NCBI GenBank assembly: GCA_016867315.1
Contig: VGJV01000002.1
Coordinates: 51,386 to 115,385 of the forward strand
Reading direction: 5' to 3'
Length of the DNA stretch: 64,000 nucleotides
From: Candidatus Liptonbacteria bacterium
GTDB lineage: Bacteria > Patescibacteriota > Minisyncoccia > UBA6257 > 2-01-FULL-56-20
Shown here: piece by piece, positions 1,225 through 63,335 of the stretch
Position numbering within the stretch: the stretch's first letter is position 1
Layout of the letters: the number at the start of each line of letters is the position of its first letter
Made by a program: the position numbers and the translations under genes
The notes under the pieces: generated by a model
Seen by the model: the letters and a program-made list of their open reading frames with translations, nothing else
Databases searched by the model: none
What the model was told of the DNA's origin: nothing

Positions 1225-1351
1225 GAATTTGAATGACTGTAAAGAACACATAGCTGCAGGGCTTCTCGCAGTCCCGCCAAGGCGGGAAGAGCAGAGCTGC
1301 TGCGGCTGCAGCCGCAGACAGCGTCCCTGCAATATGTGTTCGAACAGTCCA

Positions 1352-4107: not shown

Positions 4108-4214
4108 AAATAAAATTTCTAATTTCTAATTGACCTAATTTCTAAAGAAAATTGTTGCGCCTTATTCATTGGGAGTTGGGATTTATTTAGGAATTAGAAA
4201 TTCTGAATTAGAAA
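4108..4214. repeat. AT-rich inverted-repeat element (aatttctaatttctaatt ... aattagaaattctgaattagaaatt) between ftsX and ftsE
   Basis: Arms of about 30 nt at 4113-4145 and 4178-4212 flank a 30-nt GC-richer centre. Confidence 0.45.
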
Positions 4215-4898
4215 TTACACAAGGATATATTTGCCTTTAACCTCGTCCCGGAACACCCGCCCTCGATCGAGCGTAATCACACGCTTTTCGAGATTATTGA
4301 TGATTTCCTTGTCGTGGGTGGCAAGTATTACCGTCGTCCCTAATTGATTGATTTTCTCCAATAATTTAATGATTTCCGCAGTATGAAATGGATCAAGATT
4401 CCCCGTCGGCTCATCCGCAATAATGACTTCCGGCCGGTGGATCATCGCCCGCGCGATTGCCACCCGCTGCTTCTCCCCTCCTGAAAGCTCATGCGGAAAA
4501 TTCTTGCTCTTCTCGGCCAGCCCTACCATATCCAAAACCTGCGGTACCAACTCATTAATCTCCCGCTGAGCCCGCCCCTCTACCTCGAGCGCAAATGCGA
4601 CGTTCTCAAATGCAGTTTTAGTGGGAAGCAATCGGAAATCCTGGAACACCACTCCGATATGGCGACGAAATTGGGGTAATTCGCTGGAACCCAATTTATT
4701 GACTTCATATTGACCAAAAAACACCCGGCCGCGGCTGGGTTTCTCTTCTCCAATTAAAAGCTTAATAAGCGTAGACTTTCCGGCTCCCGATCTCCCCGCA
4801 AGCGAAACGAACTCTCCCTGTTTTATCTCTAACGTAACATCCTCAAGCGCTGGACTTAAGTGATCATAAATTTTAGCTACCCCTTGAAAAAAAATCAT
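4215..4898 (-). CDS. ftsE: Cell division ATP-binding protein FtsE
   Basis: Walker [13 protein letters not shown] signature [14 protein letters not shown], Walker [12 protein letters not shown]. Trimmed to the [11 protein letters not shown] start. Confidence 0.85.
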
Positions 4899-7007: not shown

Positions 7008-7082
7008 TGGAGCCGATGAGAGGACTTGAACCTCCAACCTTTCCCTTACGAAGGGATTGCTCTGCCATTGAGCTACATCGGC
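7008..7082 (-). tRNA. tRNA-Thr (anticodon CGT)
   Basis: Minus-strand sequence GCCGATGTAGCTCAATGGCAGAGCAATCCCTTCGTAAGGGAAAGGTTGGAGGTTCAAGTCCTCTCATCGGCTCCA. Cloverleaf with anticodon loop TTCGTAA, and CCA is encoded. Confidence 0.85.
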
Positions 7083-7167
7083 ATGAACAGCATTATTCTA
7101 CGTACTTTTGAGCTTCGTGCAACTCCTTCACCCCTTGAGAAAAATCTCCTAGAATGGGAATGTCTCA

Positions 7168-10100
7168 TGGGAAAATTTGTTCATCTTCACACTCACTCTC
7201 ACTACTCTCTCCTTGATGGCCTTGCGAAAATTGAGGATCTTGTAGGTCGCGCAAAAGAACTCGAAATGGATGCCTTGGCACTCACTGATCACGGCGTGCT
7301 TTACGGCGCAATCGAGTTTTATAAAAAAGCCAAAGCTGCCGGGATCAAACCCATCCTAGGAGTGGAAGCCTATATTGCCCCGAAAGATAGGAGGTCTCGC
7401 GATGCAGGAGAAAAATACTATCACCTCATTCTACTCTCCGAAAATATCACCGGTTGGAAAAATCTTATTAAACTCGTAACGAAAGCGAATCTCGAAGGTT
7501 TTTATTACAAACCGCGGATGGATAAGGACCTTCTTCGTGAATACCACGAAGGAATTATTGCGCTTTCCGCCTGCTTCACGGGAGAAATTCAACGCGCCAT
7601 CAACGAAGATAAAGATACGGACGCAGTATTAAAGGAATACGTGGACATTTTCGGCAAAGAAAACTTCTTCTTGGAAATCGGCTATCACCCTCATGTAAGC
7701 CCCAAACAACACGAAAAGGTGTGGAATGGATTGATCGCCCTCTCCAAACGGTCGGGAATTCCCCTTGCTGCCACGCAGGATATCCATTATGCACACCCCG
7801 ATGATCGCGAATATCATGATGTACTTCTTGCGGTGCAAACAGGAAGCAACCTGTCGGATGGAGATCGATTAACGCTCAAAGCTGACAATTTTTCCATGAC
7901 CTCTCCTGAGGAAATGGAAAAGAATTTTAAAAATATTCCGGAAGCGGTAACGAACACGGTAAAAATCGCCGAGCGCTGCAACGTAGAACTCGAACTTGGG
8001 AAAACCCAGCTCCCTGATTTTCCGAAACCGGAAGGCAAAACTGCCAATCAATATCTCCGCGAACTGGCGTATGAACGTCTCCCCAACCGTTTTTCGAAAG
8101 AAGCGCAAACACAGGAAGTGCTCGACCGGCTGGAGTATGAGTTAGGAGTTATAGAGAAAACCGGCTTCGCCGACTACTTCCTTATCGTGCAAGATCTTAC
8201 CGGCTGGGCTCGTGCGCACGGTATTGCGGTGGGCCCAGGAAGAGGCTCTGCGGCCGGGAGCCTTATGTCCTACGTCCTCGGAATTACGGACATTAACCCA
8301 TTGCGGTACGGGCTCCTCTTTGAGCGTTTTTTAAATCCGGAACGTATTCAAATGCCCGACATCGACATCGATTTCGCCGACACTCGCCGGGATGAAGTGT
8401 TAGCCTATGCACGTCAAAAATACGGCGAAGATCGCGTAGCCCAGATCATCACGTTTGGAACAATGGCTGCCCGTGCCGCAGTACGCGACGCCGGCCGCGC
8501 CATGGGCCTTCAATATGGCTTTTGCGATCAAATCGCGAAACTCATTCCTTTCAATGCCACGATCGAGGAATCGTTGGAACAAGTTCCTGAACTTCTCGAA
8601 CTTTACAAAAAAACTCCGGATGCAAAACGCGTGATGGATACAGCGAAGCACCTCGAAGGGGTGGCACGGCATGCGTCGGTACACGCCTGCGGTACTGTGA
8701 TTTCCAAAAAATCTCTTACCGAATACCTCCCACTCCAATACGCGCCGCAAGACAAAAACGCGATTATTACTCAATTTGAAATGCATTCCGTGGAAGACCT
8801 TGGGCTCCTTAAAATGGATCTTCTGGGTTTGAAAAACCTCACTATAATCGAAGAAACTATTCGGCTCGTAAAAGATCTGCGGGGAGAGGAAATCCAAATC
8901 TCGAATCTGCCACTCGACGACAAAGCCACCTTCACGCTGCTCCAAGCCGGAAATACCACGGGCGTATTTCAATTTGAGTCATCGGGCATGCGCCGCTACA
9001 TGAAAGAAATCCACCCAACCGAACTCGAAGATTTAATCGCCTTAGTAGCGCTGTTCCGCCCGGGTCCTATGGAACTTATTCCCACTTTTATTAAACGCAA
9101 ACACGGCCTGGAGAAAATCACCTATCTTCACCCCCACCTCGAACCAATTTTGAAAACCACCTACGGCATCGGTGTGTATCAAGAGCAAATGATGCAAATC
9201 GCCCGGGACGTTGCGGGGTACACCTTGCCCGAAGCAGACACGTTGCGGAAAGCTATCGGGAAAAAGATTAAATCGCTTTTGGATGAACAAAAATCCAAGC
9301 TGGTGAACGGAATGGTAAAGAACGGCATTCCCCCAAAGATTGCGGAAGCAATTTGGGAACTCTTCCCGCCCTTCGCCCGATACGGATTCAACAAGAGTCA
9401 CGCCGCCTGCTATGCCTTGATCGGCTATCAAACTGCCTACTTGAAAGCCCATTATCCCATCGAATACATGGCGGCACTCCTCAATGCCGATCTGAACGAT
9501 TTGGATCGCATTTCCTTCCTGGTAAATGAAGCCAAACAAAACAACATTCCAGTGCTCGCTCCCGATGTTAACAAAAGCTTCGTAAAATTTGCTCCGGAGG
9601 AAGGGAAAATCCGCTTCGGCCTTTTAGGAATCAAAAATGTCGGTTCTCAAATCGCGCACGCCATTATTGAGGAACGGATAAAAGGCGGAGCTTTCCAAAC
9701 TTTCACGGACTTCCTCGCCCGCATTCAACACAAAGATTTGAATAAAAAATCTTTGGAAAGCTTGGCAAAGGGAGGTGCTTTGGAATCCTTAGGCGTGGAA
9801 CGCAATCAGGTAATCCAAAATTTGGATGACATCGTGCGTTTTGCGGGCGCCGCGCGGAAAACCGCCGGCCAATCAAATTCCCTCTTCGGCTCTTCTACCG
9901 CCTCGCTTTCCATAAAGCTAAAACCCGCGCCTCCCGCTACTCGGGAAGAAAAACTGGGCTGGGAAAAGGAACTCCTGGGCTTCTATCTCTCGGATCATCC
10001 GTTGAACTCTTATAAAGAAAAAATAAACTGGCTCAAAGCGAAGCCGCTCCATGAAGTTCGCGCCATCAAAGACGAAACCAAAACCTTCCGCGCCGCGGGC

Positions 10101-10331
10101 CTAGTCTCTACTATTAAAAAAATACTCACAAAAAACGGAGAGCCGATGCTCTTCGCCACTTTGGAAGATTTCTCCCCGCAACCCTTGGAAGTAATAGTAT
10201 TTACCAAAACGCTCGCCAAAACCGAAGCTGCGTGGCAGGAAAACAACGTAGTCATCCTCCAGGGCCGCATGTCCTGGAGAAACGGAGAGCCAAAGATCAT
10301 CTGCGACGACGCGAAAAAATTAGAAGCCTAA
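7168..10331 (+). CDS. dnaE: DNA polymerase III alpha subunit
   Basis: PHP domain start (MGKFVHLHTHSHYSLLDG), polymerase core and OB-fold. The ORF-track start at 7026 overlaps tRNA-Thr, so the start was moved to the ATG at 7168. Confidence 0.9.
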
Positions 10332-10827: not shown

Positions 10828-12285
10828 TCATGATTCGTTTTTGCGATGCCGCATCAAAGGATAGATCACTGTCTCGCGCAAAGGTTTATCCATAAGAAAC
10901 GCAAAAAGCCTCTCCGAAAGTCCGAATCCTGCGATGGGCGGAAATCCATATTCCATTGCTCGCAAGAATTCCTCATCAATCATCTGCGCCTCCGTATCTC
11001 CTGCTTCTCGCAATTTCATCTGCTCCTCAAATCGTGCCCGCTGATCCAAAGGATCGTTCAACTCCGAAAACCCTTTTGCCAATTCCGTTGCTCCGGCCAC
11101 TACTTGAAATCGCTCCACGCGTTCCGGATCTTCCGCCATCCGCTTCGCAAGGGGCTCAATTGCTACCGGGGGATTCACCAAAAAGCCCGGCTGAATAAGA
11201 TTGGGTCTCACAGTTTTTTTATAAATAAGATCGATGAGCCTTCCTCTTCCAAGGCCTGGTTCGAGCGCGATCTTCAAAGCCTGCGCTTTTGCCCTAAGCT
11301 CTTCAACATTTGCAGTGCGCGGATCAAGCCCGTTCGCCTCTTGGAAAACTTCACAGTACTCTATTTTCTTCCACTTCTTTCCCCATTCAATTTTTTTCCC
11401 TTGATGCATGGTAGTAAGTCCTCCAGTAACCTTCTTGATCGTCTCTTTAAATAAAGCTTCGGTGATCTTCATCAAATCATGGTAGTCCCGATACGCCCAA
11501 TAAAATTCGAGTTGCGTGTAGTCCTGGAGATGCTCCCGATCGATACCCTCGTTTCGGAAGATACGCCCGATTTCGAATACTTTCTCATACCCACTCGCCA
11601 TAAGCTTCTTCAAAGGCAGCTCCAGCGAAATCCGAAGATAGAAATCGGCATCGAGTGCATTGTGATGAGTGATAAAAGGCTCTGCCTCCGCTCCGCCCGG
11701 CACTATCTCGAACACCGGCGTCTCTACCTCCAGAAATCCTTCCTTTTTAAGGAAGTTACGAATAGTATCCCAAAACCCTGCTTTTTTGCGGAATAGTTCT
11801 CGAGCCTCCTCGGAAAAAAAAATATCCAAATACCGCTCCCGCAACCGAGTCTCTACATCTTCCACTCCATACCACGTGGAAGGCATGGGACGAAGCGACT
11901 TCGAAGCCAAGGTAAGCGCCTTCGCTTCTACGCTCTGCTCCCCCCTCTTCGTCACAAAAAGCGGTCCAGTCACAGAGAGAAAATCCCCCCGATCGAGTAC
12001 CGTCCGCCAAAATTCGAAGTCTTTTAAACTCTCCTCTTTAAGTACCGCTTGGATCGAACCGGATTCATTCCGCAAATCCAAAAACACAATTTTCCCTTGA
12101 TCGCGGATGCTCATTACGCGCCCCACAAGAGAAACTTTCTTTTTAGCCTTCGAGAGGGAAGCAAATTTTTCCTTCGCTTCTGCAACAGAGTGCGTACGCG
12201 GCACCTTCACAGGATAAGGCTCTACCCCATGGGCCTTGAGCGCCTCTAATTTTTTTCGCCGCTCGGCAATAAGATCCTCCAACAT
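10828..12285 (-). CDS. lysS: Lysine--tRNA ligase (class II)
   Basis: 485 aa, N-terminal OB anticodon-binding domain (GRVMSIRDQGKIVFLDLRNESGSIQAV) and class II catalytic motifs. Confidence 0.9.
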   Translation of the reverse strand: MLEDLIAERRKKLEALKAHGVEPYPVKVPRTHSVAEAKEKFASLSKAKKKVSLVGRVMSIRDQGKIVFLDLRNESGSIQAVLKEESLKDFEFWRTVLDRGDFLSVTGPLFVTKRGEQSVEAKALTLASKSLRPMPSTWYGVEDVETRLRERYLDIFFSEEARELFRKKAGFWDTIRNFLKKEGFLEVETPVFEIVPGGAEAEPFITHHNALDADFYLRISLELPLKKLMASGYEKVFEIGRIFRNEGIDREHLQDYTQLEFYWAYRDYHDLMKITEALFKETIKKVTGGLTTMHQGKKIEWGKKWKKIEYCEVFQEANGLDPRTANVEELRAKAQALKIALEPGLGRGRLIDLIYKKTVRPNLIQPGFLVNPPVAIEPLAKRMAEDPERVERFQVVAGATELAKGFSELNDPLDQRARFEEQMKLREAGDTEAQMIDEEFLRAMEYGFPPIAGFGLSERLFAFLMDKPLRETVIYPLMRHRKNES

Positions 12286-12426
12286 TGTTATCCATACTAC
12301 CAGCTTTTTAGGCCCTTACAAAATGGAACCGTCTCTTCTTCCAACATAAATGAAGTCCTGTTTCTGCAAGGATTCTCGAACCACTTTCCCAACTAAGTGA
12401 AATCCTGCTTTTCTCGAACGTGGTCC

Positions 12427-12522
12427 AATATGCGAAGTCCTGTTTCGTGCAGAGATTCTCGGAGTGCGTCGGCACGAGAGCATAGCGGTCGCGAAAGCCC
12501 TTCGCGAACCGCGTCCCCGCAA
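12427..12522. repeat. GC-rich structured repeat, copy 1 (conserved core plus a covarying closing helix). Partial copies lie at 12342-12372 and 12387-12410
   Basis: Core GATTCTCGGAGTGCGTCGGCACGAGAGCATAGCGGTCGCGAAAGCCCTTCGCGAACCGCGTCCCC. Flanked by gtcctgtttcgtgc ... gcaagaaataggac (14-bp helix). Lies between the greA stop and the lysS start. Confidence 0.6.
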
Positions 12523-12542
12523 GAAATAGGACAAGCCCCTTT

Positions 12543-13010
12543 TTATTCGATTTTTATAATCTCAAACGTAGATTTTCCTGAAGGAGTAAGCACGGTCACC
12601 TCATCTCCCTTCTCGTGTCCCATAAACGCACGTCCAAGGGGAGATTCGTCGGAAATTTTGCCCTCTTCCGGCTTCGCGTCATAAGGTCCTACAATAGTAT
12701 ATTTAGTTTCTTTGCCGTTCTTCTTCACCGTCACCGCACACCCAACGCGCACCACTCCTCCCGTTCCTCCCGCTTCCTCTTCAATAATGACTGCCTTTTT
12801 CAAAAGTTCCTCGAGTTCGAAAATGCGGTTTTCGATAAGATTCTGCTCTTCACGAGCTTCAGCATATTCAGCGTTCTCGGAAAGATCTCCGTATTCCTTA
12901 GCCCGCTTTAATTTATCGGCAATATCCGCACGACCTTCCCCTTTAAGAGTTTCGAGTTCCTTCTTCAACTCCTCGTGCCGCTCTTTCGAAAGGTGATATT
13001 GGTTCGGCAT
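12543..13010 (-). CDS. greA: Transcription elongation factor GreA
   Basis: N-terminal coiled coil (ELKKELETLKGEGRADIADKLKRAKEYGDLSENAEY) and a C-terminal FKBP-like domain. Trimmed to the MPNQYHL start. Confidence 0.85.
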   Translation of the reverse strand: MPNQYHLSKERHEELKKELETLKGEGRADIADKLKRAKEYGDLSENAEYAEAREEQNLIENRIFELEELLKKAVIIEEEAGGTGGVVRVGCAVTVKKNGKETKYTIVGPYDAKPEEGKISDESPLGRAFMGHEKGDEVTVLTPSGKSTFEIIKIE

Positions 13011-13048
13011 GGTAGCGCCTAAAGGCTTAGCAATATGCAAAGCGTTAA

Positions 13049-13852
13049 TTAAATTTCGTTCTTTGCTTCTTGCTCTTCTCTGCCCGGCAGTGGTTTCGTC
13101 GCGGCAGAATTTTTAGTTCGGATATGATAGGTATCCGCCCAAAGTCTGAAGCGAATTGTAAGGGTTTCGATAGCAAAACGCAAGCCTGCCGAAAGCGGCA
13201 CTGTGGAAGCTCGGTCGTTTCTCCAATGCGCCGGAATCTCTTTGATGCGCAACTCTAAAGCACGCGCCAACGCCAAGGCCTCCACATCGAAGGCCCACCC
13301 ATTCATCTCCGCTCGAGAAAATATTTCTTCCGCTGCGCCACCCGTAAATACCTTGAATCCGCATTGGGTGTCCCACACACCGGGAAGAAGAAGCGCTTGC
13401 GCAAAAAGATTCAGCACTTTTCCGGCCACCCGTCGAAAAAGGGGTTGTGGCGGATCTAACTGCGCTCCACGCACTGCTCTCGAAGCCACCACTATATCGT
13501 ATTGCTCATGTTCATTTTGAAGATAAGGAAGGGCGAGCTCGAGATGCTCAAGAGAAGTAGAATTATCTGCATCCATAAATAGACGGATCTCCCCTCGGGC
13601 CGCAAGCATTCCTTGTCTCACCACCGCCCCTTTCCCGCGATTTTTTTTATTTTCAAGGAGAGAAAGAAAAGGGATGCCTTTGGCCATCTCACTCACAAGC
13701 TCCGCAGTGGCATCTTGCGATCCATCATTCACGACCAGAATCTCATATGAAAAGTTTTTTCCGCTCAAAATCCGATGCACATCTTGAAGCGTGGGCGGCA
13801 AGCGCTTCGCTTCGTTATACGCGGGAATGATGACGGAAAGAAATGGCTGCAT
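13049..13852 (-). CDS. Family 2 glycosyltransferase (dolichol-phosphate mannosyltransferase-like)
   Basis: VIIPAYNEAKRL ... VVNDGSQDATAEL ... DAD motif, consistent with a GT-A fold GT2 enzyme. Confidence 0.75.
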   Translation of the reverse strand: MQPFLSVIIPAYNEAKRLPPTLQDVHRILSGKNFSYEILVVNDGSQDATAELVSEMAKGIPFLSLLENKKNRGKGAVVRQGMLAARGEIRLFMDADNSTSLEHLELALPYLQNEHEQYDIVVASRAVRGAQLDPPQPLFRRVAGKVLNLFAQALLLPGVWDTQCGFKVFTGGAAEEIFSRAEMNGWAFDVEALALARALELRIKEIPAHWRNDRASTVPLSAGLRFAIETLTIRFRLWADTYHIRTKNSAATKPLPGREEQEAKNEI

Positions 13853-13862
13853 AGCAAGTGGT

Positions 13863-13943
13863 AAGTAGTAGGTAGTATGTAGCGAGAAGAATGTAAACGA
13901 GGTGAAGAATTGATTGCGTATTCTACTACTTACTACTTTCTAC
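13863..13943. repeat. GTAG-rich long inverted repeat (hairpin) between map and the GT2 gene
   Basis: gtaagtagtaggtagtatgtag ... ttctactacttactactttctacatactacttac. Imperfect inverted repeat of about 22-35 nt arms. Confidence 0.5.
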
Positions 13944-13946
13944 ATA

Positions 13947-14711
13947 CTACTTACTCGTGAGTATTCTCGGTCCTGACTCCGTGATCGCCACCGTATGCTC
14001 GAAATGAGCAGTAATACTTCCATCTGCCGCCGCAAAACTATCATCAGGAAACTGCTTCACTTTGCCACGCCCTGCAGCAACCATGGGTTCAATCGCCAGC
14101 ACCATGCCAGGCAAAAGTTTGAGTCCCCGTCCGGGTACTCCCGTATTTAAAACCGAGGGCTCCTCATGAAGTTCTTTTCCAATTCCATGTCCGCATAATT
14201 TTTCTACTATAGAAAATCCGTCCTCTTCCACTCGCTTCTGAATCGCCGCTCCTATGTCCCCTAAAGTATTTCCGGGTCGTGCCTGTCTGATTCCCCCCAT
14301 AAGCGCCGCGTGAGTCGTCTTAAGCAATCGCTTCGCTTCCTCGGTGCCTTTTCCTGCGATGACTGTACGCGCCGAATCCACATTCCAATCTTTCCACGTA
14401 AGCCCGGCATCGATTTTGACCACATCCCTCTCTCTAATTTCATACCCCGAAGGAATTCCGTGCACCACGGTCTCATTTATAGAAACACAAAGCGCCGCAG
14501 GATATCGCTCATCGCTCCCGGGAGCGTGATATCCCAAAAAAACCGGTATGGCTTCCGCTTCTTGAATGAGTTTTCGGGCAAGCAAATCAAGCTCCTCTGT
14601 CCGCATTCCCACACGCACTGCACTCACTAATACCTCAAGCACGTGGGCCAAACGCTTTCCCGCTTCGGCCATCATTTCAATTTCTGCCGGAGTTTTTATT
14701 GTGATTGCCAT
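13947..14711 (-). CDS. map: Methionine aminopeptidase type I
   Basis: 254 aa, conserved metal-ligand residues of the pita-bread fold (D..D..H..E..E pattern). Confidence 0.9.
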   Translation of the reverse strand: MAITIKTPAEIEMMAEAGKRLAHVLEVLVSAVRVGMRTEELDLLARKLIQEAEAIPVFLGYHAPGSDERYPAALCVSINETVVHGIPSGYEIRERDVVKIDAGLTWKDWNVDSARTVIAGKGTEEAKRLLKTTHAALMGGIRQARPGNTLGDIGAAIQKRVEEDGFSIVEKLCGHGIGKELHEEPSVLNTGVPGRGLKLLPGMVLAIEPMVAAGRGKVKQFPDDSFAAADGSITAHFEHTVAITESGPRILTSK

Positions 14712-15259
14712 GAAGTATATGCGTCTTTAACAATGCCAATCACCTGCTCCAAGTTATTTTTGCCAGTATCCACCACTAAATCGAACTGGGATGGGTTCGT
14801 GTAGTCAATTTTATAAAGATCCCAGTAGCGCTTCTTCTCACTTTCCAACCGCTTCATCGTATTGTGATAAATCTCCTCGACGGAAGATCCGGCCTGACTC
14901 GCTCTCCCTTCCCGCTGGATCTGCGCGAAGGTGCGCTCAGCAGCTTTCCGAATATCCAGATTCAAAAAAACCTTAAACGCCTCGGGAATCCAATGAAACG
15001 CCATCCGCGAATCGATCACGAACCCCTCTTTTTCCTGACCTAACTTTTCGATCCATTTATCGACTTCGAAGTCAATTTCTTTTTGGGTTTCGGCGGCGAT
15101 ATTAATCCCCTCAATCGAAAGCCCGCGATCCGCCGCCATTTTTCTAAAAAGGTCCCCCGAAGAAAAATGCTCATAGCTCAAAACAAGTGCTACTCCTTTC
15201 GCAGTGCTCGATTTTCCGCTTCCCGGCACGCCGGTGATTGTAATAATCTTTTTTTTCAT
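14696..15259 (-). CDS. cmk: Putative cytidylate kinase, archaeal type (P-loop NMP kinase)
   Basis: 187 aa. KIITITGVPGSGKSSTAKGVA...SSGDLFRKMAADRGLS resembles the archaeal-type Cmk / Cytidylate_kin2 family. Confidence 0.6.
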   Translation of the reverse strand: MKKKIITITGVPGSGKSSTAKGVALVLSYEHFSSGDLFRKMAADRGLSIEGINIAAETQKEIDFEVDKWIEKLGQEKEGFVIDSRMAFHWIPEAFKVFLNLDIRKAAERTFAQIQREGRASQAGSSVEEIYHNTMKRLESEKKRYWDLYKIDYTNPSQFDLVVDTGKNNLEQVIGIVKDAYTSWQSQ

Positions 15260-15837
15260 GCGAGTTCAAGTACGATATTCACGCTCTTTTGCACCGCTTC
15301 GATCGATGGCCGCCCATCCACCTCGAAAAATTCGGTGCGCTGCCGCATAAAAGGAAGCATGGGCACGGTATTCGCCTGATAATCCGCGAGCCTACGCTCG
15401 ATTGCCGCCAAAGTGTCATCGCTCCGGCCTTCTTTTTCAGCGCGAAGCAACAATCGCTTTCGAGATTCTTCAATAGGAATATCGAGGAATACCGAAGCAA
15501 ATCGCTTTTTCCCAAACGACTGCAGCAATCCAAAAAGAAAGTCAGCCTGTCCCACGCGGCGAGGAATCCCATCGAACACGATCCCTTGTTCCCGAGGTAG
15601 GGATTCAAGCTCAGTCCGCACGACACTTAAAAGCTCCTCGTCGGTAAAAAGCCTACCACTTTTTAATATATCTCCCGCGCGCGCGCCGCTCACCGTAATC
15701 ATCTCCGAATTTCGACGAAGCACTGCTCCGGTGTCCCAGAAGAAAAAACCCAGTTTCTCTGCGAGTAATTTAGCCTGAGTGCCCTTCCCAGACCCTTGCG
15801 GGCCAAGGACAAAAATAGCATCGTATCCCCGATTCAT
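15256..15837 (-). CDS. adk: Adenylate kinase (short form, no zinc lid)
   Basis: P-loop GPQGSGKGTQ and an NMP-binding region. 193 aa. Confidence 0.9.
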   Translation of the reverse strand: MNRGYDAIFVLGPQGSGKGTQAKLLAEKLGFFFWDTGAVLRRNSEMITVSGARAGDILKSGRLFTDEELLSVVRTELESLPREQGIVFDGIPRRVGQADFLFGLLQSFGKKRFASVFLDIPIEESRKRLLLRAEKEGRSDDTLAAIERRLADYQANTVPMLPFMRQRTEFFEVDGRPSIEAVQKSVNIVLELA

Positions 15838-15876: not shown

Positions 15877-17148
15877 TTATTGGATCCCTTCGTATTCACG
15901 CACCGTAAGCTGCGAATCAATCTGCCTCATGGTCTCCAAAGCCACCGCCACTACAATAAGCAACGCCGTACCGCTTACGGTAAGCACCGCTACCCCCGTG
16001 ATCGCCTGCACAATGATAGGCAAAATCGCAATGAGCCCCAAAAACACGGCCCCGAAGAAAGTCACACGATTCACGGTTTTTTTGAAGAATTCTTCAGTCA
16101 TTTCTCCCGGTCGGATTCCCGGAATAAACCCTCCTCCTCGCTGTAAATTCTTGGCTACCTCCGATGGATTGAATGTGATCGAAGTGTAGAAATAGGTGAA
16201 TGCGAACACAAGCGAGAAGTAGATGATCCCGTAGAACATTCGGTTATTAAGCACACTCGTCACGATCTCATTAAGTTTGACTCCCACCCCGGGAGAAATG
16301 GCCGTCATCACCTGCGCGATGAATTGCGGGAAAAGGAATACTGAGATTGCGAAGATCAAAGGAATCATTCCTGCTTGGTTTACTTTAAGCGGCAGGTAGC
16401 TCGATACTCCGCCGAACATCTTCATGCCCCGCACACGTCGAGCGTACGCCACAGGCACTTTCCGCTCCCCCTCGTTCAAATACACGACTCCAAAGATCAC
16501 AAGAAGCAACACTAAAAGGAATCCGATGTAGGTAGCCAATTTCGCGGGCGTGTAGGAAAGGAGCAGCAAACGCACATTCGCCGGCAAGCCCGCCACAATT
16601 CCTGCAAGGATGATAAGCGAAATGCCATTCCCCACTTTTTGCTCAGTGATAAGTTCTCCGAGCCACACTGCGATCATTGCTCCCGCGGTGATCACCACCA
16701 CAGTCGTAAGCAAAAGCCAAGCATCCGGTCGATCGAGAACTCCCGAACTCATAAGGAGTGCAAGGAATCCGTACGCCTGAAGCACTGCAAGCGGCACGGT
16801 GAGCATTCGGGAATATTGATTAAATTTCGCACGTCCTTGGGCTCCTTCCTCGTAATAAAGTTGCTTGAACTTCGGGAAAATGAGCGTCAAAAGCTGCATG
16901 ATAATTGTCGCCGTGATGTACGGTCCTACCCCCAACATCATGACCGACAAACTTTCTAATCCTCCTCCTGAAAAAAAGTTCAAAAAACCCAAGAGCTGGT
17001 TGGAGTTGAAATATTGCTGGAGTCTGTCCGCATCCACCCCGGGAATAGGAATAGCGGCAAAGAAACGGTATGCCACAAGTACCCCTAATACGATAAGGAT
17101 TTTGTTGCGGATTTCAGGGATTCTAAAAATTTGGAGGATTCGATTCAT
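15877..17148 (-). CDS. secY: Preprotein translocase subunit SecY
   Basis: 10 TM segments and SecY signature regions. Trimmed to MNRILQIFRIPEIRNKIL, because the longer ORF would overlap the upstream repeat element. Confidence 0.9.
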   Translation of the reverse strand: MNRILQIFRIPEIRNKILIVLGVLVAYRFFAAIPIPGVDADRLQQYFNSNQLLGFLNFFSGGGLESLSVMMLGVGPYITATIIMQLLTLIFPKFKQLYYEEGAQGRAKFNQYSRMLTVPLAVLQAYGFLALLMSSGVLDRPDAWLLLTTVVVITAGAMIAVWLGELITEQKVGNGISLIILAGIVAGLPANVRLLLLSYTPAKLATYIGFLLVLLLVIFGVVYLNEGERKVPVAYARRVRGMKMFGGVSSYLPLKVNQAGMIPLIFAISVFLFPQFIAQVMTAISPGVGVKLNEIVTSVLNNRMFYGIIYFSLVFAFTYFYTSITFNPSEVAKNLQRGGGFIPGIRPGEMTEEFFKKTVNRVTFFGAVFLGLIAILPIIVQAITGVAVLTVSGTALLIVVAVALETMRQIDSQLTVREYEGIQ

Positions 17149-17171: not shown

Positions 17172-17272
17172 GTCGGCTTCGGGTGGAAAAGGGATTCTCG
17201 GAGCGCGGCGGCGCGAGAGCATAGCGGCTGCGAAAGCCCATCGCGGACCGCGTCCCTTTGCCATACGAAGCC
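17172..17272. repeat. GC-rich structured repeat, copy 2 (between rplO and secY)
   Basis: Core GGGATTCTCGGAGCGCGGCGGCGCGAGAGCATAGCGGCTGCGAAAGCCCATCGCGGACCGCGTCCC. Flanked by cggcttcgggtggaaaaggga ... tccctttgccatacgaagccg (21-bp helix, 19 pairs). Confidence 0.6.
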
Positions 17273-17291
17273 GCGCCGGAGCATACTCATA

Positions 17292-17735
17292 TTATTGCAC
17301 TTTTCCTCCTGCCTTCTCAATCTGAGCCTTGGCAGACTTAGATGTCGGCAAACCGTGAAGCTCGAGAGAGGCCGAAAGCTCTCCCCCTCCCAAAATTTTC
17401 ACTGCGCCGCGAAACCCCGGTGGAATAATACCTGCCTTCTGAAGTACCTCGCGGTTCACCACCAAAGGTGCCTTGCTGTCATGAAGCGGCGCTAACTTCT
17501 TTCCGAGAATTCCTACTTGAATCGGTATCGGCTTAGCCTCAATCGGCTTATTGCGAAACCCTCGACGCTTAGGAAGTCGAATAATGAGATCGCGCACCGC
17601 CGGCCGGATACGCCGCCCGGATCGGGATTTCTGCCCCTTTACTCCGCGTCCGGAATAACTGCCTCGCTTACCGCTGCGCCCAATGCGCTGCGCTCGCTTT
17701 TTAGCCGGATTTTTTTGTAATTCGTGTAATTGCAT
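17292..17735 (-). CDS. rplO: 50S ribosomal protein L15
   Basis: Gly/Arg-rich N-terminus and L15 family conservation. Position in the spc operon. Confidence 0.9.
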   Translation of the reverse strand: MQLHELQKNPAKKRAQRIGRSGKRGSYSGRGVKGQKSRSGRRIRPAVRDLIIRLPKRRGFRNKPIEAKPIPIQVGILGKKLAPLHDSKAPLVVNREVLQKAGIIPPGFRGAVKILGGGELSASLELHGLPTSKSAKAQIEKAGGKVQ

Positions 17736-25832: not shown

Positions 25833-26049
25833 CCAATTCGCATTATTTGCCTCCATTCGAATTATTCGCGATTACTCCTAAATAAAAACTGCCCAAGGCA
25901 CGTACCTTTAGGCAGGGACGTCCTTGTGCAACCCAGCTCTTTACGCTTTAGGAATCCAGCACAACATCCCTAGAAAATTCTCACATCGAGAAGTTATACG
26001 GGACAATGTGTTGTTGCCTAAAGGGCTGGGCCATTAAAGAGACTGGAAC

Positions 26050-26080
26050 ATGATAAGCCAAATGGCAAAAAGTGTCAAAC
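26050..26080 (-). terminator. Hairpin terminator immediately after the RelE/ParE toxin gene
   Basis: aaaaagtAGTGTttgACACTttttgcc is a perfect palindrome flanked by A/T runs. Confidence 0.55.
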
Positions 26081-26081
26081 A

Positions 26082-26360
26082 CTACTTTTTGGGTTTCTTG
26101 TATACCTTATCCCGCAACGCAATGCGATGAATCGTAACAATATGTGATTCGTGTTCCATCTCGTAAACCACTCGCCAATCTCCTACACGCAGCTTAAAAT
26201 ATCCGTGCCACTCGTGGCCAAGCGCCTCATGAACAACCGAAGGAAAATTCTCGCGAAACCACTCCAATTTGCCTAAAATCCTTCTCTGTACTGGCGCGTC
26301 CAAAGAGCGTAAATCTTCCTCTCCGGTGAGAGTGAAAGTAAATTTCCAGCCCGAGGACAT
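26082..26360 (-). CDS. Type II toxin, RelE/ParE family
   Basis: 92 aa. FKLRVGDWRVVYEMEHESHIVTIHRIALRDKVY is typical of the RelE/ParE fold (plasmid stabilisation system protein). Confidence 0.75.
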   Translation of the reverse strand: MSSGWKFTFTLTGEEDLRSLDAPVQRRILGKLEWFRENFPSVVHEALGHEWHGYFKLRVGDWRVVYEMEHESHIVTIHRIALRDKVYKKPKK

Positions 26361-26368
26361 TCTATAAA

Positions 26369-26569
26369 CTAGAGCGAACTCACTACCTCCTCAAAAGTAC
26401 GGATCCTGCCTTGCTTTTTTTCCGCAGCAGATTTCTTGAGTCTCTTTACAAACGCGGAGCGAATCTCAAGTCCTTTGTCAGAATCGATAAGCAATTCGCG
26501 CAATGCACGCTGCACCGCCCGCTCCACCACTGCTTCGATTTTTTTTTCTTCAATAGTAATGCGAGCCAT
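26369..26569 (-). CDS. Putative antitoxin (ribbon-helix-helix or Phd-like), partner of the RelE/ParE toxin
   Basis: 66 aa, helical and charged. Stop lies 9 nt upstream of the toxin start. Confidence 0.6.
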   Translation of the reverse strand: MARITIEEKKIEAVVERAVQRALRELLIDSDKGLEIRSAFVKRLKKSAAEKKQGRIRTFEEVVSSL

Positions 26570-26980
26570 GCTTTCACTCTACCTCCTAAAAATGGAAAGT
26601 CAATGAAGCTTGGTCTGAAGCGTACGCGTATTCCCATGTTTCAAGAGCCCTCGATACGATTCGAGCGTTGCCGATTTTCCATTATTCGCCACATTCTTGA
26701 ACATCCGCCGCTTCGTCGCCGTGCGGAGTACGCGATGGTCGGGAAAATGGAAGGTGTTCATACTTTTTTTTGCCACGGGGACTTGGACGCACACTCGCTC
26801 TATGCGAGGGCGTTGCATCACTTATTGATTTTGCCGCAGCACTCATTCCGCGACTGTCTGCTTCTTCTACATCAATCCGCGACATGAATGCTGGGGCAAA
26901 AAACCTCTCAAAAGATTGGGTAAATCATACCATTTCTCAATAAAAAACGCAAGGATTAAAGGATTAGCCTTGAAAACACA

Positions 26981-27007
26981 AACGCACCCTTTCGAGTGCG
27001 TTTTGTT
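26981..27007. terminator. Intrinsic terminator-like hairpin downstream of rpsJ and the copy-3 repeat
   Basis: aacgcac-cctttcga-gtgcgtt stem-loop followed by ttttgtt. On the minus strand it is followed by gtgttttc. Confidence 0.55.
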
Positions 27008-27020
27008 ACTAATCCAATAA

Positions 27021-27055
27021 GCGAAGTCCTGTTCCAGATGGGGATTCTCGAACCC
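27021..27055. repeat. Partial copy of the GC-rich structured repeat (5' helix strand plus the first 9 nt of the core)
   Basis: gcgaagtcctgttccagatggggattctcgaaccc is the same truncation point (ctcgaacc) as the two partial copies at 12.34-12.41 kb. Confidence 0.5.
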
Positions 27056-27099
27056 AATAAAAGGAACGGGGGCATATTCTCTTACAGCTAACAAAGCGA

Positions 27100-27195
27100 A
27101 ATCCTGCCGCTTGTGGGGATTGTCGGAGCGCGGCGGCGCGAGACATAGCGCTGCGAGAGCCCCTCGCAGATAGCGTCCCCACAAGTGACAGGATG
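27100..27195. repeat. GC-rich structured repeat, copy 3 (3' of rpsJ)
   Basis: Core GGGATTGTCGGAGCGCGGCGGCGCGAGACATAGCGCTGCGAGAGCCCCTCGCAGATAGCGTCCCC. Flanked by atcctgccgcttgtgggga ... tccccacaagtgacaggat (19-bp helix, one mismatch, one G-U). Confidence 0.6.
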
Positions 27196-27203
27196 AGCGC
27201 CTC

Positions 27204-27536
27204 TTATACCATTTTAATTTCGACGTCGACCCCAGCCGGCAGGTTCAGGTTCCCAAGAGATTCAATGATCTTCTGATTCGGATTCATGATATCGATGAGC
27301 CGCTTGTGCATCCGAAGCTCGAACTGCTCCCGCGAATCCTTGTGTACGAAGGTAGAACGGTTCACGGTATACTTCCGCGTCTCGGTGGGCAACGGAATTG
27401 GCCCCACCACCTTCGCATCGTGCCGCTCTGCGGCATCGATGATCTGGCGCGCAGAAGAATCGATCAGCTTGTGGTCGTAGGAACGAATCCGCAAGCGGAG
27501 CTTCTGATGAAAATCGTTTTCCTGTTTCTTAGCCAT
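27204..27536 (-). CDS. rpsJ: 30S ribosomal protein S10
   Basis: 110 aa. Family conservation. Confidence 0.9.
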
Positions 27537-38053: not shown

Positions 38054-38143
38054 ATATGTCCGGCGGGGATTCTCGGAGCGCGACGGCGTGAGAGTATAGC
38101 GGCCGCGAGAGCCCCGCGCGGACCGCGTCCCCGCAGGACATAT
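38054..38143. repeat. GC-rich structured repeat, copy 4 (between the Kelch gene and the small membrane protein gene)
   Basis: Core GGGATTCTCGGAGCGCGACGGCGTGAGAGTATAGCGGCCGCGAGAGCCCCGCGCGGACCGCGTCCCC. Flanked by atatgtccggcgggga ... tccccgcaggacatat (16-bp helix, one mismatch). Confidence 0.6.
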
Positions 38144-46171: not shown

Positions 46172-47233
46172 ATGGATTTGGCCCTCATTCTTATTCTCAT
46201 CCTGATTCTTGCCGCGCTCGCCGGTGGCTTTTGGTTTTTATGGCGGGAAATGCATCGCGAAAAAGAGGCAAAACCCGATCAATCCCTCCTTCTCCTTCAA
46301 AACCAAATCAATGAACTCTCCCGCGTACTTGATAACCGACTAGGGGATTCTGCGAAAGCAATCCAGACGCATTTTGGAGAAAGCACAAAACTTATCCGCG
46401 AAATCACCCAAGAACTCGTGCGCGTGGGCGAAGGTCAAAAACAAGTCCTCTCCATCACCGACCAACTCAAAAACCTCCAGGATATTTTGAAAAACCCGAA
46501 ACAGCGAGGAGTGCTGGGAGAATATTATCTGGAAACCGCCCTCCGAAACGTCCTCCCTCCGGGAAGCTATCAAATGCAATATCCCTTTAAAGATGGGACG
46601 ATCGTGGACGCAGTCATATTCCACCAAGGAAAAATCATCCCCATTGATTCCAAATTCTCCCTCGAAAACTACACGCGCATATTGGATTCGAAAACCGATG
46701 CAGATCGGAAAAAATTTGAGGAAGCGTTCCGCGGCGATCTAAAAACCCGTATCGATGAAACTTCAAAATATATAAAACCCACCGAAGGCACTATCGAGTT
46801 CGCCTTTATGTATATCCCCTCGGAAGGAATTTACTACGACCTCCTGGTCAATAAAGTAGGAGCGGTAGCCGCGCGCGACCTCCTAGAGTACGCCATTGCG
46901 GAAAAGAAGGTTGTCCCCGTCTCTCCTACGTCGTTTGCCGCCTATCTCCAAACAATTCTCATGGGTTTGAAACAAGCTGAAATTAACAAATCTGCTGATG
47001 AAATCCGAAAACGCGTGGGGGACTTGGGTCGCCACCTCATGAGCTTCGAAGAATACATGAAAAAATTAGGCGTGCAATTAGGCACTGCTTCGAAAACCTA
47101 TTCTAAAGCCTATCAGGAGCTCCGGAAAATAGACAAAGACGTGTTAAAAATCAGCGGCGAAACGATGGGTGTAGAACCTATGACGCTCGAAGCTCCGAGT
47201 TTTGACGAAGAAGAAAGCCAAGCACTACTTTAA
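46172..47233 (+). CDS. rmuC: DNA recombination protein RmuC
   Basis: N-terminal TM, coiled coil, and a conserved C-terminal RmuC domain (KNPKQRGVLGEYYLETALRNVLP...). Confidence 0.8.
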   Translation: MDLALILILILILAALAGGFWFLWREMHREKEAKPDQSLLLLQNQINELSRVLDNRLGDSAKAIQTHFGESTKLIREITQELVRVGEGQKQVLSITDQLKNLQDILKNPKQRGVLGEYYLETALRNVLPPGSYQMQYPFKDGTIVDAVIFHQGKIIPIDSKFSLENYTRILDSKTDADRKKFEEAFRGDLKTRIDETSKYIKPTEGTIEFAFMYIPSEGIYYDLLVNKVGAVAARDLLEYAIAEKKVVPVSPTSFAAYLQTILMGLKQAEINKSADEIRKRVGDLGRHLMSFEEYMKKLGVQLGTASKTYSKAYQELRKIDKDVLKISGETMGVEPMTLEAPSFDEEESQALL

Positions 47234-47345
47234 TTTCTAATTACTAATTCCTAAAAAATACTCAAATCCCAAATTCCAAAGGTATCCGTTCGGATTTAGA
47301 AATTGGAGTTTGTTTAGAAATTAGATATTAGGAATTAGGATTTAT
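47231..47345. repeat. AT-rich inverted-repeat element (taatttctaattactaattcctaa ... ttagaaattagatattaggaattagga) between convergent rmuC and ftsZ
   Basis: Inner atccgttcggat palindrome. Same aatttctaatt/aattagaaatt motif family as at 4.1 kb and 31.0 kb. Confidence 0.45.
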
Positions 47346-51075: not shown

Positions 51076-51485
51076 GTGGACGTAATATATAACTTCTTTT
51101 GCATTATTTCAAGAGGGTCTTTGGAGGGGTTCTCTACAATACTATGAATTGACCCCCCTCCATCCTCTTCGAACCGAGAAAGAACATGCACGTGAAGATG
51201 TCCTACCGCTTGCCCGCTCGCGCGCCCATCATTCACGCCAATGGTAAGCGCGTCCGCGTTGAGCCGCTTCTTCACCTCCTTACTTATTTTTTGGACCGCC
51301 TCGAAAAGAGGTGCGACTTCCTCTTGGGGCAAATCTCCTAAAGTACCAGCGTGCACCTTAGGAATCACCATAGTGTGCCCAGGAGCTTTGGGATGTATGT
51401 CGAGAAAAGCAAACACATGCGCGTCCTCATACACTACATGAGAGAAAATTTCTTTATGAGCGATTTTACAGAATAAACAGTCCAT
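51072..51485 (-). CDS. HIT-family (histidine triad) nucleotide hydrolase
   Basis: HLHVHVL histidine triad. Confidence 0.85.
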   Translation of the reverse strand: MDCLFCKIAHKEIFSHVVYEDAHVFAFLDIHPKAPGHTMVIPKVHAGTLGDLPQEEVAPLFEAVQKISKEVKKRLNADALTIGVNDGRASGQAVGHLHVHVLSRFEEDGGGSIHSIVENPSKDPLEIMQKKLYITST

Positions 51486-51550
51486 AACGCTATAGGTTTT
51501 CCTATTTCCGACCGTAAATCCGCAGGGAGGAATTAGGAAAACAAATAAGT

Positions 51551-56968: not shown

Positions 56969-57630
56969 TGAAATTGAATTTGGATAGAGCCGGTGCTCGT
57001 CGTGTAATAAATTTTTGTAGAAGTAGAAAACTTGCTATTAGTGCTTGTAACGGGGGTATCTTGGCCGGGGCCTCCAAACCAATCTGTTTGGCTGTAGATA
57101 TAACTAGTACGAGATCGAGTGAGATATGTGGAAAGAGTATTGGTAGCGCTTTGCGGCCAGCGGTACACGACGGTAACCCTCTTCGTAGAAGGATCGCTAT
57201 TTCCTCCGCTTGTTACTATAAGATTCCCCGCATCCCGAAAAACATCATCTACATAAAAATAGCGCGTATAGGTCGTAGTTCCCACCTGAAGATTTTCACT
57301 GCCAGACACCGAAGAAAAAGGGGAGGTGCTCGTCGTGAGGTAATATCGATTTGCCGAAGTGGTACTCAAGGCCAGAAGACCATTCCAATCGCCTTGAGAC
57401 CATACGCTCACATTATCCAAAAGTTCTTTCCCAAGGCTTGTACCTACTTGCGACTTAAGTGTCTGCGTATTGCTTCGAAGGACGGGGGCAATAATAGTGG
57501 CTCCTGCTCCAATCATGATGACTCCCACGAGAAGGGCGATCAAAACCTCGATAAGAGACTGCCCTCCACGGGCAGAAAGTAGAAAATAGAAAGTAGAAAA
57601 TAAATTCTTATGTTGATTCATGCCATCCAT
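56965..57630 (-). CDS. Pilin-like protein (prepilin-type N-terminus, Glu5 present)
   Basis: ...LLSARGG|QSLIEVLIALLVGVIMIGAGATII. Unusually long hydrophobic leader (NLFSTFYFLL). Confidence 0.65.
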   Translation of the reverse strand: MDGMNQHKNLFSTFYFLLSARGGQSLIEVLIALLVGVIMIGAGATIIAPVLRSNTQTLKSQVGTSLGKELLDNVSVWSQGDWNGLLALSTTSANRYYLTTSTSPFSSVSGSENLQVGTTTYTRYFYVDDVFRDAGNLIVTSGGNSDPSTKRVTVVYRWPQSATNTLSTYLTRSRTSYIYSQTDWFGGPGQDTPVTSTNSKFSTSTKIYYTTSTGSIQIQFQ

Positions 57631-57665
57631 TCTATTTTCTGCTTTCTAAATTCTATTTTCTAGTC
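57574..57665. repeat. agaaaRtag/ctaYtttct inverted repeats bracketing the start codon of pilin-like gene 56965..57630
   Basis: agaaagtagaaaatagaaagtagaaaataaa (coding, 57574-57604) and attctattttctgctttctaaattctattttctag (57631-57665). Confidence 0.55.
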
Positions 57666-58154
57666 TTAGTAGCTCACCGCCCCACTGGCATTAATTGATA
57701 TTGTAGTCGAAGCTGACCCGGATTTGGTCTGGATAATGACGGAAGTGGCCGTAGAAGCCAATCCGGTAATTTGAGCAAACGTTATTTCTTTAGTAGCTCC
57801 GGACCCTAAACTCGAAGTGGTATATGAAACAGTTTTAGGCAAAGGATAATGTCCCACGCGGGTAGAAGTCGTGTACGTGCCGTAAAAAAGCACATAAAAA
57901 GGCGTGGTAGAAGTGCTATTTTCAAAGTGTACTCCCCATACGGAACTTGAAGCCCGACTAAGAGACCTGCTCTGCGCTTCCCGCAAGGTAGCAGTCACTC
58001 GTTTTATCGTATCTTCAAATTCAGTTCTACTCTGGAATCCGAAAAGGCCAGTGAAGAGAAATGCGGCAAGAATCGCTCCAATAAAAAGCACGAGGGTAAT
58101 TTCCAATATAGTAAATCCTCTTCTATCGGTAATATGCTTTTGTAGTGCCCGCAT
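57666..58154 (-). CDS. Prepilin-type N-terminal cleavage/methylation domain protein (minor pilin)
   Basis: MRALQKHITDRRG|FTILEITLVLFIGAILAAFLF is a classic class III signal with Glu5. Confidence 0.8.
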   Translation of the reverse strand: MRALQKHITDRRGFTILEITLVLFIGAILAAFLFTGLFGFQSRTEFEDTIKRVTATLREAQSRSLSRASSSVWGVHFENSTSTTPFYVLFYGTYTTSTRVGHYPLPKTVSYTTSSLGSGATKEITFAQITGLASTATSVIIQTKSGSASTTISINASGAVSY

Positions 58155-63174: not shown

Positions 63175-63247
63175 GTGGGTGTGGAAGGAATCGAACCTTC
63201 GACCTCTGTCTTATCAGGACAGCGTTCTACCACTGAACTACACACCC
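63175..63247 (-). tRNA. tRNA-Ile (anticodon GAT)
   Basis: GGGTGTGTAGTTCAGTGGTAGAACGCTGTCCTGATAAGACAGAGGTCGAAGGTTCGATTCCTTCCACACCCACC. Anticodon loop CTGATAA. CCA is not fully encoded. Confidence 0.85.
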
Positions 63248-63299
63248 GTATAAAATTTCGTTTTCTCCGAGCGAACCATTTGTATCAAAATACTTTGAT

Positions 63300-63335
63300 A
63301 TCAGGACAGCGTTCTACCACTGAACTACACACCCG
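63300..63335 (-). pseudogene. Partial duplicate of tRNA-Ile (positions 1-36, from the 5' end through the anticodon), followed on the minus strand by a tatcaaa-atac-tttgata hairpin
   Basis: 36-nt exact identity to 63213-63248. Diverges immediately 3' of the anticodon GAT. Confidence 0.6.

Follow-up and report, generated by a model that had tools for sequence, protein, structure and literature searches.

A lineage-restricted, GC-rich interspersed repeat with a three-armed fold in operon spacers of a Candidatus Liptonbacteria genome

The DNA analysed here (64,000 nucleotides, referred to below as the window) covers positions 51,386 to 115,385 of contig VGJV01000002.1 (assembly GCA_016867315.1) of a Candidatus Liptonbacteria bacterium, an assignment with which SecY and its neighbouring proteins agree. 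It carries a genuine family of GC-rich interspersed repeats of about 95 bases, each folding as a three-armed (T-shaped) hairpin; one copy lies with two truncated units in the spacer between greA and lysS (12286-12542). The family is restricted to one lineage, a genus-level clade of Candidatus Liptonbacteria, and is patchy among close relatives. The interpretation we favour, in which we place about even confidence, is that of a non-autonomous mobile DNA repeat which would behave like a repetitive extragenic palindromic (REP) sequence or a miniature inverted-repeat transposable element (MITE), would have a new T-shaped architecture, and would act only secondarily on operon mRNAs.

The window contains five full copies, four close and one diverged, and three truncated left-end copies. 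The four close copies, with a common core of about 65 nt, had been predicted from the sequence and were confirmed by repeat finding and motif search. They lie, with the consensus on the plus strand, at 12437-12532 (copy 1, greA-lysS spacer; 98.4 bits), 17174-17273 (copy 2, between rplO, with its stop at 17292, and secY, with its start at 17148; 97.8 bits), 27101-27194 (copy 3, 9 nt past the rpsJ stop; 90.1 bits) and 38054-38143 (copy 4, in the spacer upstream of a small membrane-protein gene; 100.9 bits). The motif GATTCTCGGAG, with at most one mismatch, occurs 7 times against 1.95 expected, and the hits include all four. A covariance model built from the four close copies (R1), run with filters off, recovered a diverged copy that the original prediction had missed (copy 5, 1245-1340, plus strand; 45 bits, E 4e-7); it begins about 11 nt past the stop of the gene at 1352-2134 and folds with a z score of -5.7. 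When rescored with a second model (R2) made from seven copies, the five of the window and two of a relative designated L029, it reached 70.9 bits. No further copy was found by covariance model in the window, nor in the 17 kb beyond its two ends.

The units are about 90-117 bp long and have a G+C content of 62-76%, against a background of 49% in the window and genome. As predicted, every window copy is placed between co-directional minus-strand genes. For copy 1 these are greA upstream (12543-13040, minus; PF03449, PF01272) and lysS downstream (10828-12285, minus; PF01336, PF00152), and the copy starts 10 nt after the greA stop codon (TAA, 12545-12543). It had been described as lying immediately upstream of lysS; the two are in fact separated by about 150 nt, which contain both truncated units and, by reading, a promoter-like TTGTAA-16-TAGTAT. 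The core of copy 3 has two deletions of 1 nt. The open reading frame (ORF) P0121 (37686-38336) is called through copy 4, and its 5' part looks spurious.

Each full copy folds as a three-way junction made of a long closing helix (P1), a short bipartite helix (P2; CUC/GAG plus a variable tip) and an 11-bp hairpin with a bulged A on its 3' side (P3). In copy 1 (all on the plus strand) the P1 arms are at 12437-12455 (5') and 12514-12532 (3'); between them are UU (12456-12457), the P2 hairpin (12458-12480), the CAUA junction (12481-12484), the P3 hairpin with its bulged A (12485-12512) and a G (12513). Energy minimisation gives the same junction for each full copy and for either strand (-44 to -72 kcal/mol; z -3.4 to -7), the exception being one degenerate copy in L029. 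For copy 1 the energies are -44.1 kcal/mol on the plus and -44.6 kcal/mol on the minus strand (z about -4.3). Given the terminal arms and the two GC-rich palindromes P2 and P3, either single strand folds as a T-shaped three-way junction.

The pairing is maintained by compensatory change, as had been proposed. In the five window copies 93.9% of the pair cells are standard and 14 of the 30 pairs are changed on both sides; with the two L029 copies added the values are 91.3% and 17 of 30. Of 500 shuffles of either alignment none reached the observed pairing and covariation, and sliding the structures by 1-3 columns reduced the pairing to 31-52%. These alignments were fitted to a covariance model, which favours structure; the independent single-sequence folds agree. 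The family was found in two genomes, and all of the statistics rest on 7-8 related sequences. The individual compensatory changes listed earlier for the inner helices were also confirmed, as was the presence of a closing helix on each close copy (16-21 bp). The claim of a conserved rAGCCCy loop held in part: copies 1-4 and L029 copy A have it, whereas it is replaced in copy 5 (UGCA) and is not kept in L029 copy C. In the last two copies the tip of P2, the loops and the upper stem of P3 are wholly replaced, and what is retained is the set of junction bases GGG-n-UUCUCG-(G/C)AG, GAG-CA(U/G)AGC, the bulged A and GCGUCCC.

The closing helix was originally said to differ at each locus, which proved to be overstated. 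The P1 arms are 13-21 bp long, with an ancestral form of about TTTCCTGCGGGGA...TCCCCGCAGGAAATATGG, and read CCTGTTTCGTGCAGAGA / TCCCCGCAAGAAATAGG in copy 1, ATATGTCCGGCGGGGA / TCCCCGCAGGACATATGG in copy 4, ATAGCTGCAGGG / CCCTGCAATATGTG in copy 5 and GTGTTTCCTGCGGGGA / TCCCCGCAGGAAATATGG in L029 copy C. Over the 7+7 nt beside GGGGA/TCCCC, identity to L029 copy C (14265-14381) is 86% for copy 1 and 79% for copy 4; copies 1 and 4 are 64% identical to each other over the same 14 nt. Copies 1, 4 and 5 of the window and copies C and A of L029 have homologous arms, across loci and species. P1 of copy 3 is partly related to the others and differs by two compensated pairs; P1 of copy 2 alone is unrelated (0-21% identity). 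The homology implies that the arms travel with the element like terminal inverted repeats and are not acquired at each locus. Copy-specific closing helices had been taken as a sign of selection on RNA; the arms are inherited parts of the element, and that argument is unsupported.

The truncated copies likewise point to duplication of DNA. All are on the plus strand, and two precede copy 1: h1a (12340-12382) consists of the left flank, the 5' arm (GTCCTGTTTCTGCAAGGA) and TTCTCG, followed by AACC, and h1b (12388-12420), the middle unit, consists of the left flank, a remnant of the 5' arm (GAAATCCTG) and TTCTCG, followed by AACG, and also lacks GGA. The third, h3 (27013-27054), is the counterpart of h1a at the copy 3 locus. 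The existence of the three units and their retention of left flank, 5' arm and TTCTCG were as predicted; the AACC said to end each of them is present in two of the three. All break alike (TTCTCG, then AAC) and go back to one truncated ancestor, not to separate events of decay. The conserved left flank (TCCAATATGCGAA; 12424-12436, plus, before copy 1) is common to the half copies and the copy 3 locus, and forms part of a longer similarity: about 200 nt of the copy 1 locus can be aligned with the copy 3 locus (80% column identity), through a half copy, a spacer, a full copy and 10 nt of outer flank. This indicates that a composite block was copied from one operon spacer to another. The suggestion that the half copies serve as a platform for alternative pairing was not borne out; in a fold of the entire greA-lysS spacer copy 1 keeps its own fold, and the remainder is not significant (z -1.3).

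At the copy 3 locus a canonical terminator (27003-26980, minus strand) follows h3. Copy 3, h3 and this terminator border a ParE-type toxin cassette that has a promoter of its own and is composed of a ParE-like ORF (26082-26360) and an upstream small ORF (about 26360-26560), between rpsJ and rplC. The cassette interrupts rpsJ-rplC in the source genome only; the four relatives read at this site have just a hairpin, a promoter and a leader.

The distribution was followed in syntenic DNA from eight related lineages, anchored on homologues of SecY and L3. Models R1 and R2 scored nothing in seven of the eight (14 loci, sampled DNA of the same region). Individual spacers were read in L013, L014, L026 and, for rplO-secY, L010, whose SecY proteins are 83-86% identical to that of the window. 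Their rplO-secY and rpsJ-rplC spacers contain no element and are short, AT-rich or occupied by plain terminator-like hairpins; L013 and L026 likewise lack it between greA and lysS, where the spacer is of a similar kind. This comparison of orthologous sites is made at a degree of SecY identity at which the spacers are not alignable.

The one relative found to carry the element, L029 (JGI contig Ga0484002_000697), has a SecY nearer to those of element-free relatives (87-88% identity) than to that of the window genome (81%). It has three copies within a 500-nt spacer directly after greA. Copy A (13907-13989) and copy B (14053-14146; left half intact, right half degenerate) have the orientation of the window copies; copy C (14265-14381) is inverted, is very well formed (-72 kcal/mol) and is flanked by two plus-strand genes, the downstream one being an ORF open for 290 codons from 14467 with a signal peptide at its start. 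The JGI gene calls on the opposite strand (13866-14678 and 14715-15131) run through the GC-rich elements and look spurious. Ten more kb of the same contig hold no additional copy. After the cluster, 14467-15337 encodes a repeat-rich secreted protein with a signal peptide and internal repeats of about 130 aa.

In large collections, a pattern for the 5' half of the core gave three chance matches in public genome contigs, from unrelated phyla, and a 3'-half pattern gave five chance matches in metagenome contigs, in high-GC DNA. Two patterns had zero matches in viral contigs, and blastn against phages and plasmids returned nothing relevant. The genome and metagenome scans missed even the source organism, the JGI contig of which should, by extrapolation, span copies, so that these negatives are weak and speak only against a widespread family. 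The contigs of the source organism in Logan, ENA and JGI are 100% identical to the window (one is 99.97%), and in consequence no population variation is available. One of its short-read Logan contigs (L024) terminates at window position 17268, inside copy 2, so that assemblies may be broken up by the family and its copies under-counted in metagenome-assembled genomes.

The substitutions carry no RNA strand signature. Across the seven aligned copies there are 182 Watson-Crick cells, 7 G-U pairs as read on the consensus strand, 4 A-C cells, which the other strand would read as G-U, and 14 other mismatches. In four of six copies the consensus strand has the more favourable fold, ahead of its complement by 3.9 to 6.2 kcal/mol; in the remaining two the strands are equal. 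The difference is not decisive. GC skew is negative over the whole window, which places all its copies in one replichore with genes co-oriented with replication; orientation to transcription and orientation to replication are accordingly not separable here.

Taken together, the patchy distribution, the composite and truncated copies, the capacity to invert, the foreign composition and the absent strand signal favour multiplication as DNA, and are easier to reconcile with a mobile or duplicative repeat than with a conserved cis-regulatory RNA. Compensatory change is not in itself an argument for RNA. In imperfect DNA palindromes (quasipalindromes) template switching from one arm to the other can restore complementarity with no selection on RNA involved, and enzymes that read folded single-stranded DNA, as in the REP/RAYT and IS200/IS605 systems, also select for hairpins. 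We propose that an enzyme whose gene lies elsewhere in the genome copies or moves the unit as DNA; this enzyme would recognise the folded or inverted-repeat ends and leave no target duplication. Copies would land, or survive, at the few permissive sites of a compact genome, 9-22 nt past a stop codon, and would there be co-transcribed. Closure of P1 would loop the insert out of the mRNA and keep the upstream stop near the downstream start, which may be why essential operons such as rplO-secY tolerate copies that keep P1 paired. As a secondary effect, so stable a fold would probably hinder degradation from the 3' end or cause partial termination.

Other hairpins of about 100 nt, a second class with no relation to the element, fill many operon spacers in the source genome and in relatives, each lineage having its own sequence family. 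They are AT-rich with low-complexity arms in the window (13850-13950, 4108-4218, 57570-57668, 47227-47344 and 51491-51547) and in L014 (3233-3376, 5645-5746, 7283-7384, 9916-10006 and 11268-11374), and also occur in L010 (1347-1400, 5425-5545, 6407-6527 and 6874-6925). In L014 the hairpin occupies the exact interval between a gene's stop codon and the CUCC-AUG of the gene that follows, and one copy has a z score of -8.8; such placement fits the idea that closure of a long helix keeps stop and start close.

Several results weigh against a mobile repeat. No transposase, RAYT, integrase, reverse transcriptase or HUH domain was detected by Pfam in 30 window ORFs, and precomputed Pfam hits for the other window genes likewise include no transposase, integrase, reverse transcriptase or HUH domain; the search was made in the window ORFs apart from several short ones, with about 84 kb of the source genome read, and within the ORFs checked the original statement that no transposase is adjacent holds. 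None of six copies has a target-site duplication (no k-mer of at least 3 nt abuts both ends), and the six have no common target or flank motif. No empty site or insertion polymorphism was found among the all but identical public contigs of the source organism. All five window copies are oriented alike relative to the genes, five of the six primary copies (1, 2, 3, 5 and L029 A) start 9-22 nt past the upstream stop codon (copy 4 sits 217 nt downstream of that of its upstream gene), and the junction bases and fold are maintained across two species; these three features would suit a selected cis-acting RNA as well.

Such an RNA, acting in cis in operon transcripts from the sense (window minus) strand and selected by the host as a 3'-end stabiliser, a processing site (for example for RNase III at the long P1), an insulator or a non-canonical terminator, is the strongest of the alternatives, and we regard it as possible though rather improbable. 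Besides the uniform orientation and the post-stop position, it would account for the very stable, covarying folds. On the sense strand P1 runs into a T-rich tail in copies 3 and 5 (weakly so in copy 1, and offset by 7 nt in copy 2), and relatives carry plain terminator hairpins at the greA and rpsJ sites. However, with an intrinsic terminator defined as a GC-rich stem with a U tract within 0-2 nt on the transcribed strand, the terminator scan flagged P1 of no copy; a canonical terminator still follows copy 3, and termination at copy 2, inside the rplO-secY unit, would be harmful. Counted on the sense strand, there are more A-C mismatches (7) than G-U pairs (4), and the best-preserved copy of the relative, L029 C, is inverted between two plus-strand genes. 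The same spacers are free of the element in the four closest relatives read there, and truncated copies and a composite duplication would be unexpected for a regulatory site.

A doubtful variant is that the conserved junction (UUCUCG-NAG / GAG-CAUAGC / bulged A / GCGUCCC) forms the core of a new functional RNA specific to the Candidate Phyla Radiation (CPR), spread by duplication and persisting in at least two species; it could serve as a motif for self-cleavage or processing, or as a module that binds protein and punctuates operon transcripts.

It is unlikely that the T serves the host at the level of DNA, as a folded or cruciform site that a host protein binds or cuts (for example during replication or recombination, or in organising the nucleoid), and is not selfish. 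The equal folding of both strands, the absence of strand bias among wobble pairs, the junction bases conserved across species and the single orientation of the window copies in one replichore of uniformly negative skew are all compatible with such a site. Its patchy distribution among close relatives, the degenerate and truncated copies and the clustering of three copies in one 500-nt spacer are not what it would lead one to expect, and no partner protein has been identified.

We consider it quite improbable that the consensus (window plus) strand is an autonomously active RNA, either a self-cleaving ribozyme or a small trans-acting RNA. The variable-length P2, long P1 and conserved junction resemble the layout of multi-copy small ribozymes, and both the better folding of this strand in four of six copies and its excess of G-U over A-C cells (7 against 4) lean the same way; with 7-8 sequences that preference is not significant. 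The plus strand is antisense to every flanking gene of the window, no promoter or terminator brackets the element, L029 copy C is inverted, and no ribozyme or small RNA model of Rfam matches at E up to 10. Last, insertion of a conserved core into the loops of pre-existing, locus-specific terminator hairpins, with P1 derived from the target, is very improbable and at most applicable to copy 2. In its favour are the 15-19 bp intergenic hairpins with tiny loops in the source genome, the hairpins directly after rpsJ and greA in relatives and the unrelated P1 of copy 2. It is largely refuted by the homology, between copies and between species, of P1 in copies 1, 4 and 5 and in L029 C and A, which shows P1 to travel with the element.

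Known structured RNAs were compared with the element. At gathering thresholds Rfam 15 found only tRNAs in the window and no family matching the element, and in E-value mode (E up to 10) the regions 12280-12560 and 25840-27260 gave chance matches only (STnc250 at 14 bits against 42, and miRNA models). The original rejection of a T-box, riboswitch or known ribozyme was right, and the Rfam classes excluded comprise T-box, riboswitches, hammerhead, twister, twister-sister, pistol, hatchet, HDV-like ribozymes, group II domains and small RNAs; group II intron domain 5 was ruled out by reading of the sequence as well. A tRNA or tRNA-like element was rejected, as ARAGORN and Rfam gave just four ordinary tRNAs elsewhere in the window and no cloverleaf; the resemblance of GGTTCGAGAATCC in the half copies to a T arm is superficial and comes with no cloverleaf. 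A small ORF in the core was also dismissed: five frames are open, but the ATG is not conserved, and a peptide profile of the core (six-frame/five-frame) searched against 5.8 billion protein clusters matched only the spurious ORF P0121 of the source genome.

The closest behavioural analogues of a mobile repeat of this kind would be the REP/RAYT and IS200/IS605-derived elements. Like REP, BIME and REPIN sequences of proteobacteria (the RAYT being a Y1 HUH enzyme), the units are short, GC-rich structured repeats after genes in operons, are co-transcribed, keep their hairpin by compensatory changes and lack target-site duplications. REP sequences are mobilised in trans and secondarily stabilise mRNA 3' ends or terminate transcription, as the present element might. 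They differ in that a REP is a single imperfect palindrome of 20-40 nt with a GTAG-type head and a REPIN two inverted REPs, whereas the element is a three-way junction of about 95 nt with two unrelated inner hairpins and no GTAG head seen, and no RAYT is known for the genome (none among the window ORFs checked). REPINs were rejected on the ground that P2 is not the reverse complement of P3.

Bacterial MITEs (Correia of Neisseria, ERIC/IRU, RUP, bcr1) resemble the element in length (about 100 bp), in their conserved terminal inverted repeats, in their intergenic, co-transcribed positions and in the occurrence of truncated and composite copies; the folded RNA of a MITE can be an RNase III substrate or a terminator. 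Terminal inverted repeats common to copies are indeed present here (copies 1, 4, 5 and L029 C and A; 64-86% over 14 nt). MITEs normally also have target-site duplications, found in none of the six copies, and a recognisable parent insertion sequence, for which the ORFs checked offer no transposase domain; and the MITE interior is not usually a conserved, covarying pair of hairpins, which that of the element is. PATEs derived from IS200/IS605 require no inverted-repeat transposase footprint, duplicate no target and are biased in orientation relative to replication, and their hairpins are recognised as single-stranded DNA; they were rejected since they insert 3' of a fixed tetra- or pentanucleotide and have ends that are not complementary, while here the flanks differ and the ends pair. 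Integron attC sites need R''/R' sites (RYYYAAC...GTTRRRY) at the base of the stem and have a variable centre; here the centre and inner stem are conserved and no GTTRRRY is at the base.

More distant likenesses concern shape and setting. GC clusters of yeast mitochondria and the double-hairpin elements of chytrid and Allomyces mitochondrial DNA are mobile, GC-rich palindromic modules, lineage-specific and patchy in distribution, in the spacers of compact genomes of lower G+C; they belong to another domain of life, have no sequence relation, are shorter and lack a long closing helix. The T-shaped terminal hairpins of parvoviruses (the inverted terminal repeat of adeno-associated virus, with its HUH Rep) have a long stem capped by two GC-rich cross-arm palindromes, formed from single-stranded DNA. 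They are telomeres of a linear single-stranded DNA replicon, with Rep-binding GAGC repeats and a nick site, while the elements are internal to a chromosome, and the analogy is one of shape only. The unit thus fails the defining tests for REP sequences, classical MITEs, PATEs, attC sites and every Rfam family, and its architecture (a three-way junction, conserved junction bases, inherited inverted arms and no target duplication) could not be matched to any described family.

Four other features were recorded. A promoter and leader upstream of rplC are conserved in the window (25870-26078, minus strand) and in five relatives (L013, about 1150-1275; L014, about 340-470; L026, about 340-478; L029, 80-215; L010, about 600-735); they comprise TTGACA-17-TATCAT (with variants), TCTCTTTAATGG, CACAAGGA and a GC hairpin with a T run. 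The leader looks like a ribosomal-protein leader of the attenuator type and matched no Rfam family when searched in E-value mode. Small ORFs of the PDDEXK_3 family (PF13366) lie between rpsG and fusA of a relative (L031, 4999-5313) and between purine-synthesis genes just beyond the window start (L015, 15812-16216), and no copy of the element is beside either. The 3' part of tRNA-Ile is duplicated exactly over 37 nt (63212-63248 and 63299-63335), 87 nt from the gene, which may be the remnant of an integration or excision event. The dnaE gene of L013 (16633-20952) has an intein (PF14890) that those of the window (7026-10331, 1101 aa) and of L026 (1054 aa) lack.

Genomes of the CPR (Patescibacteria) are small, with little room between genes, and the usual description credits them with few repeats and little mobile DNA. 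The family described here is well documented yet small (two genomes), and its mechanism stands at the level of a proposal. It shows a CPR genome tolerating stable GC-rich structured inserts of about 100 nt within essential ribosomal-protein and secY operons. That the same spacers hold unrelated, lineage-specific hairpin repeats in close relatives points to a fast turnover of structured spacer elements. If the fold acts in RNA, it would be a new operon-punctuation motif; a mobilising enzyme, if found, could define a new pairing of element and enzyme acting on T-shaped DNA.

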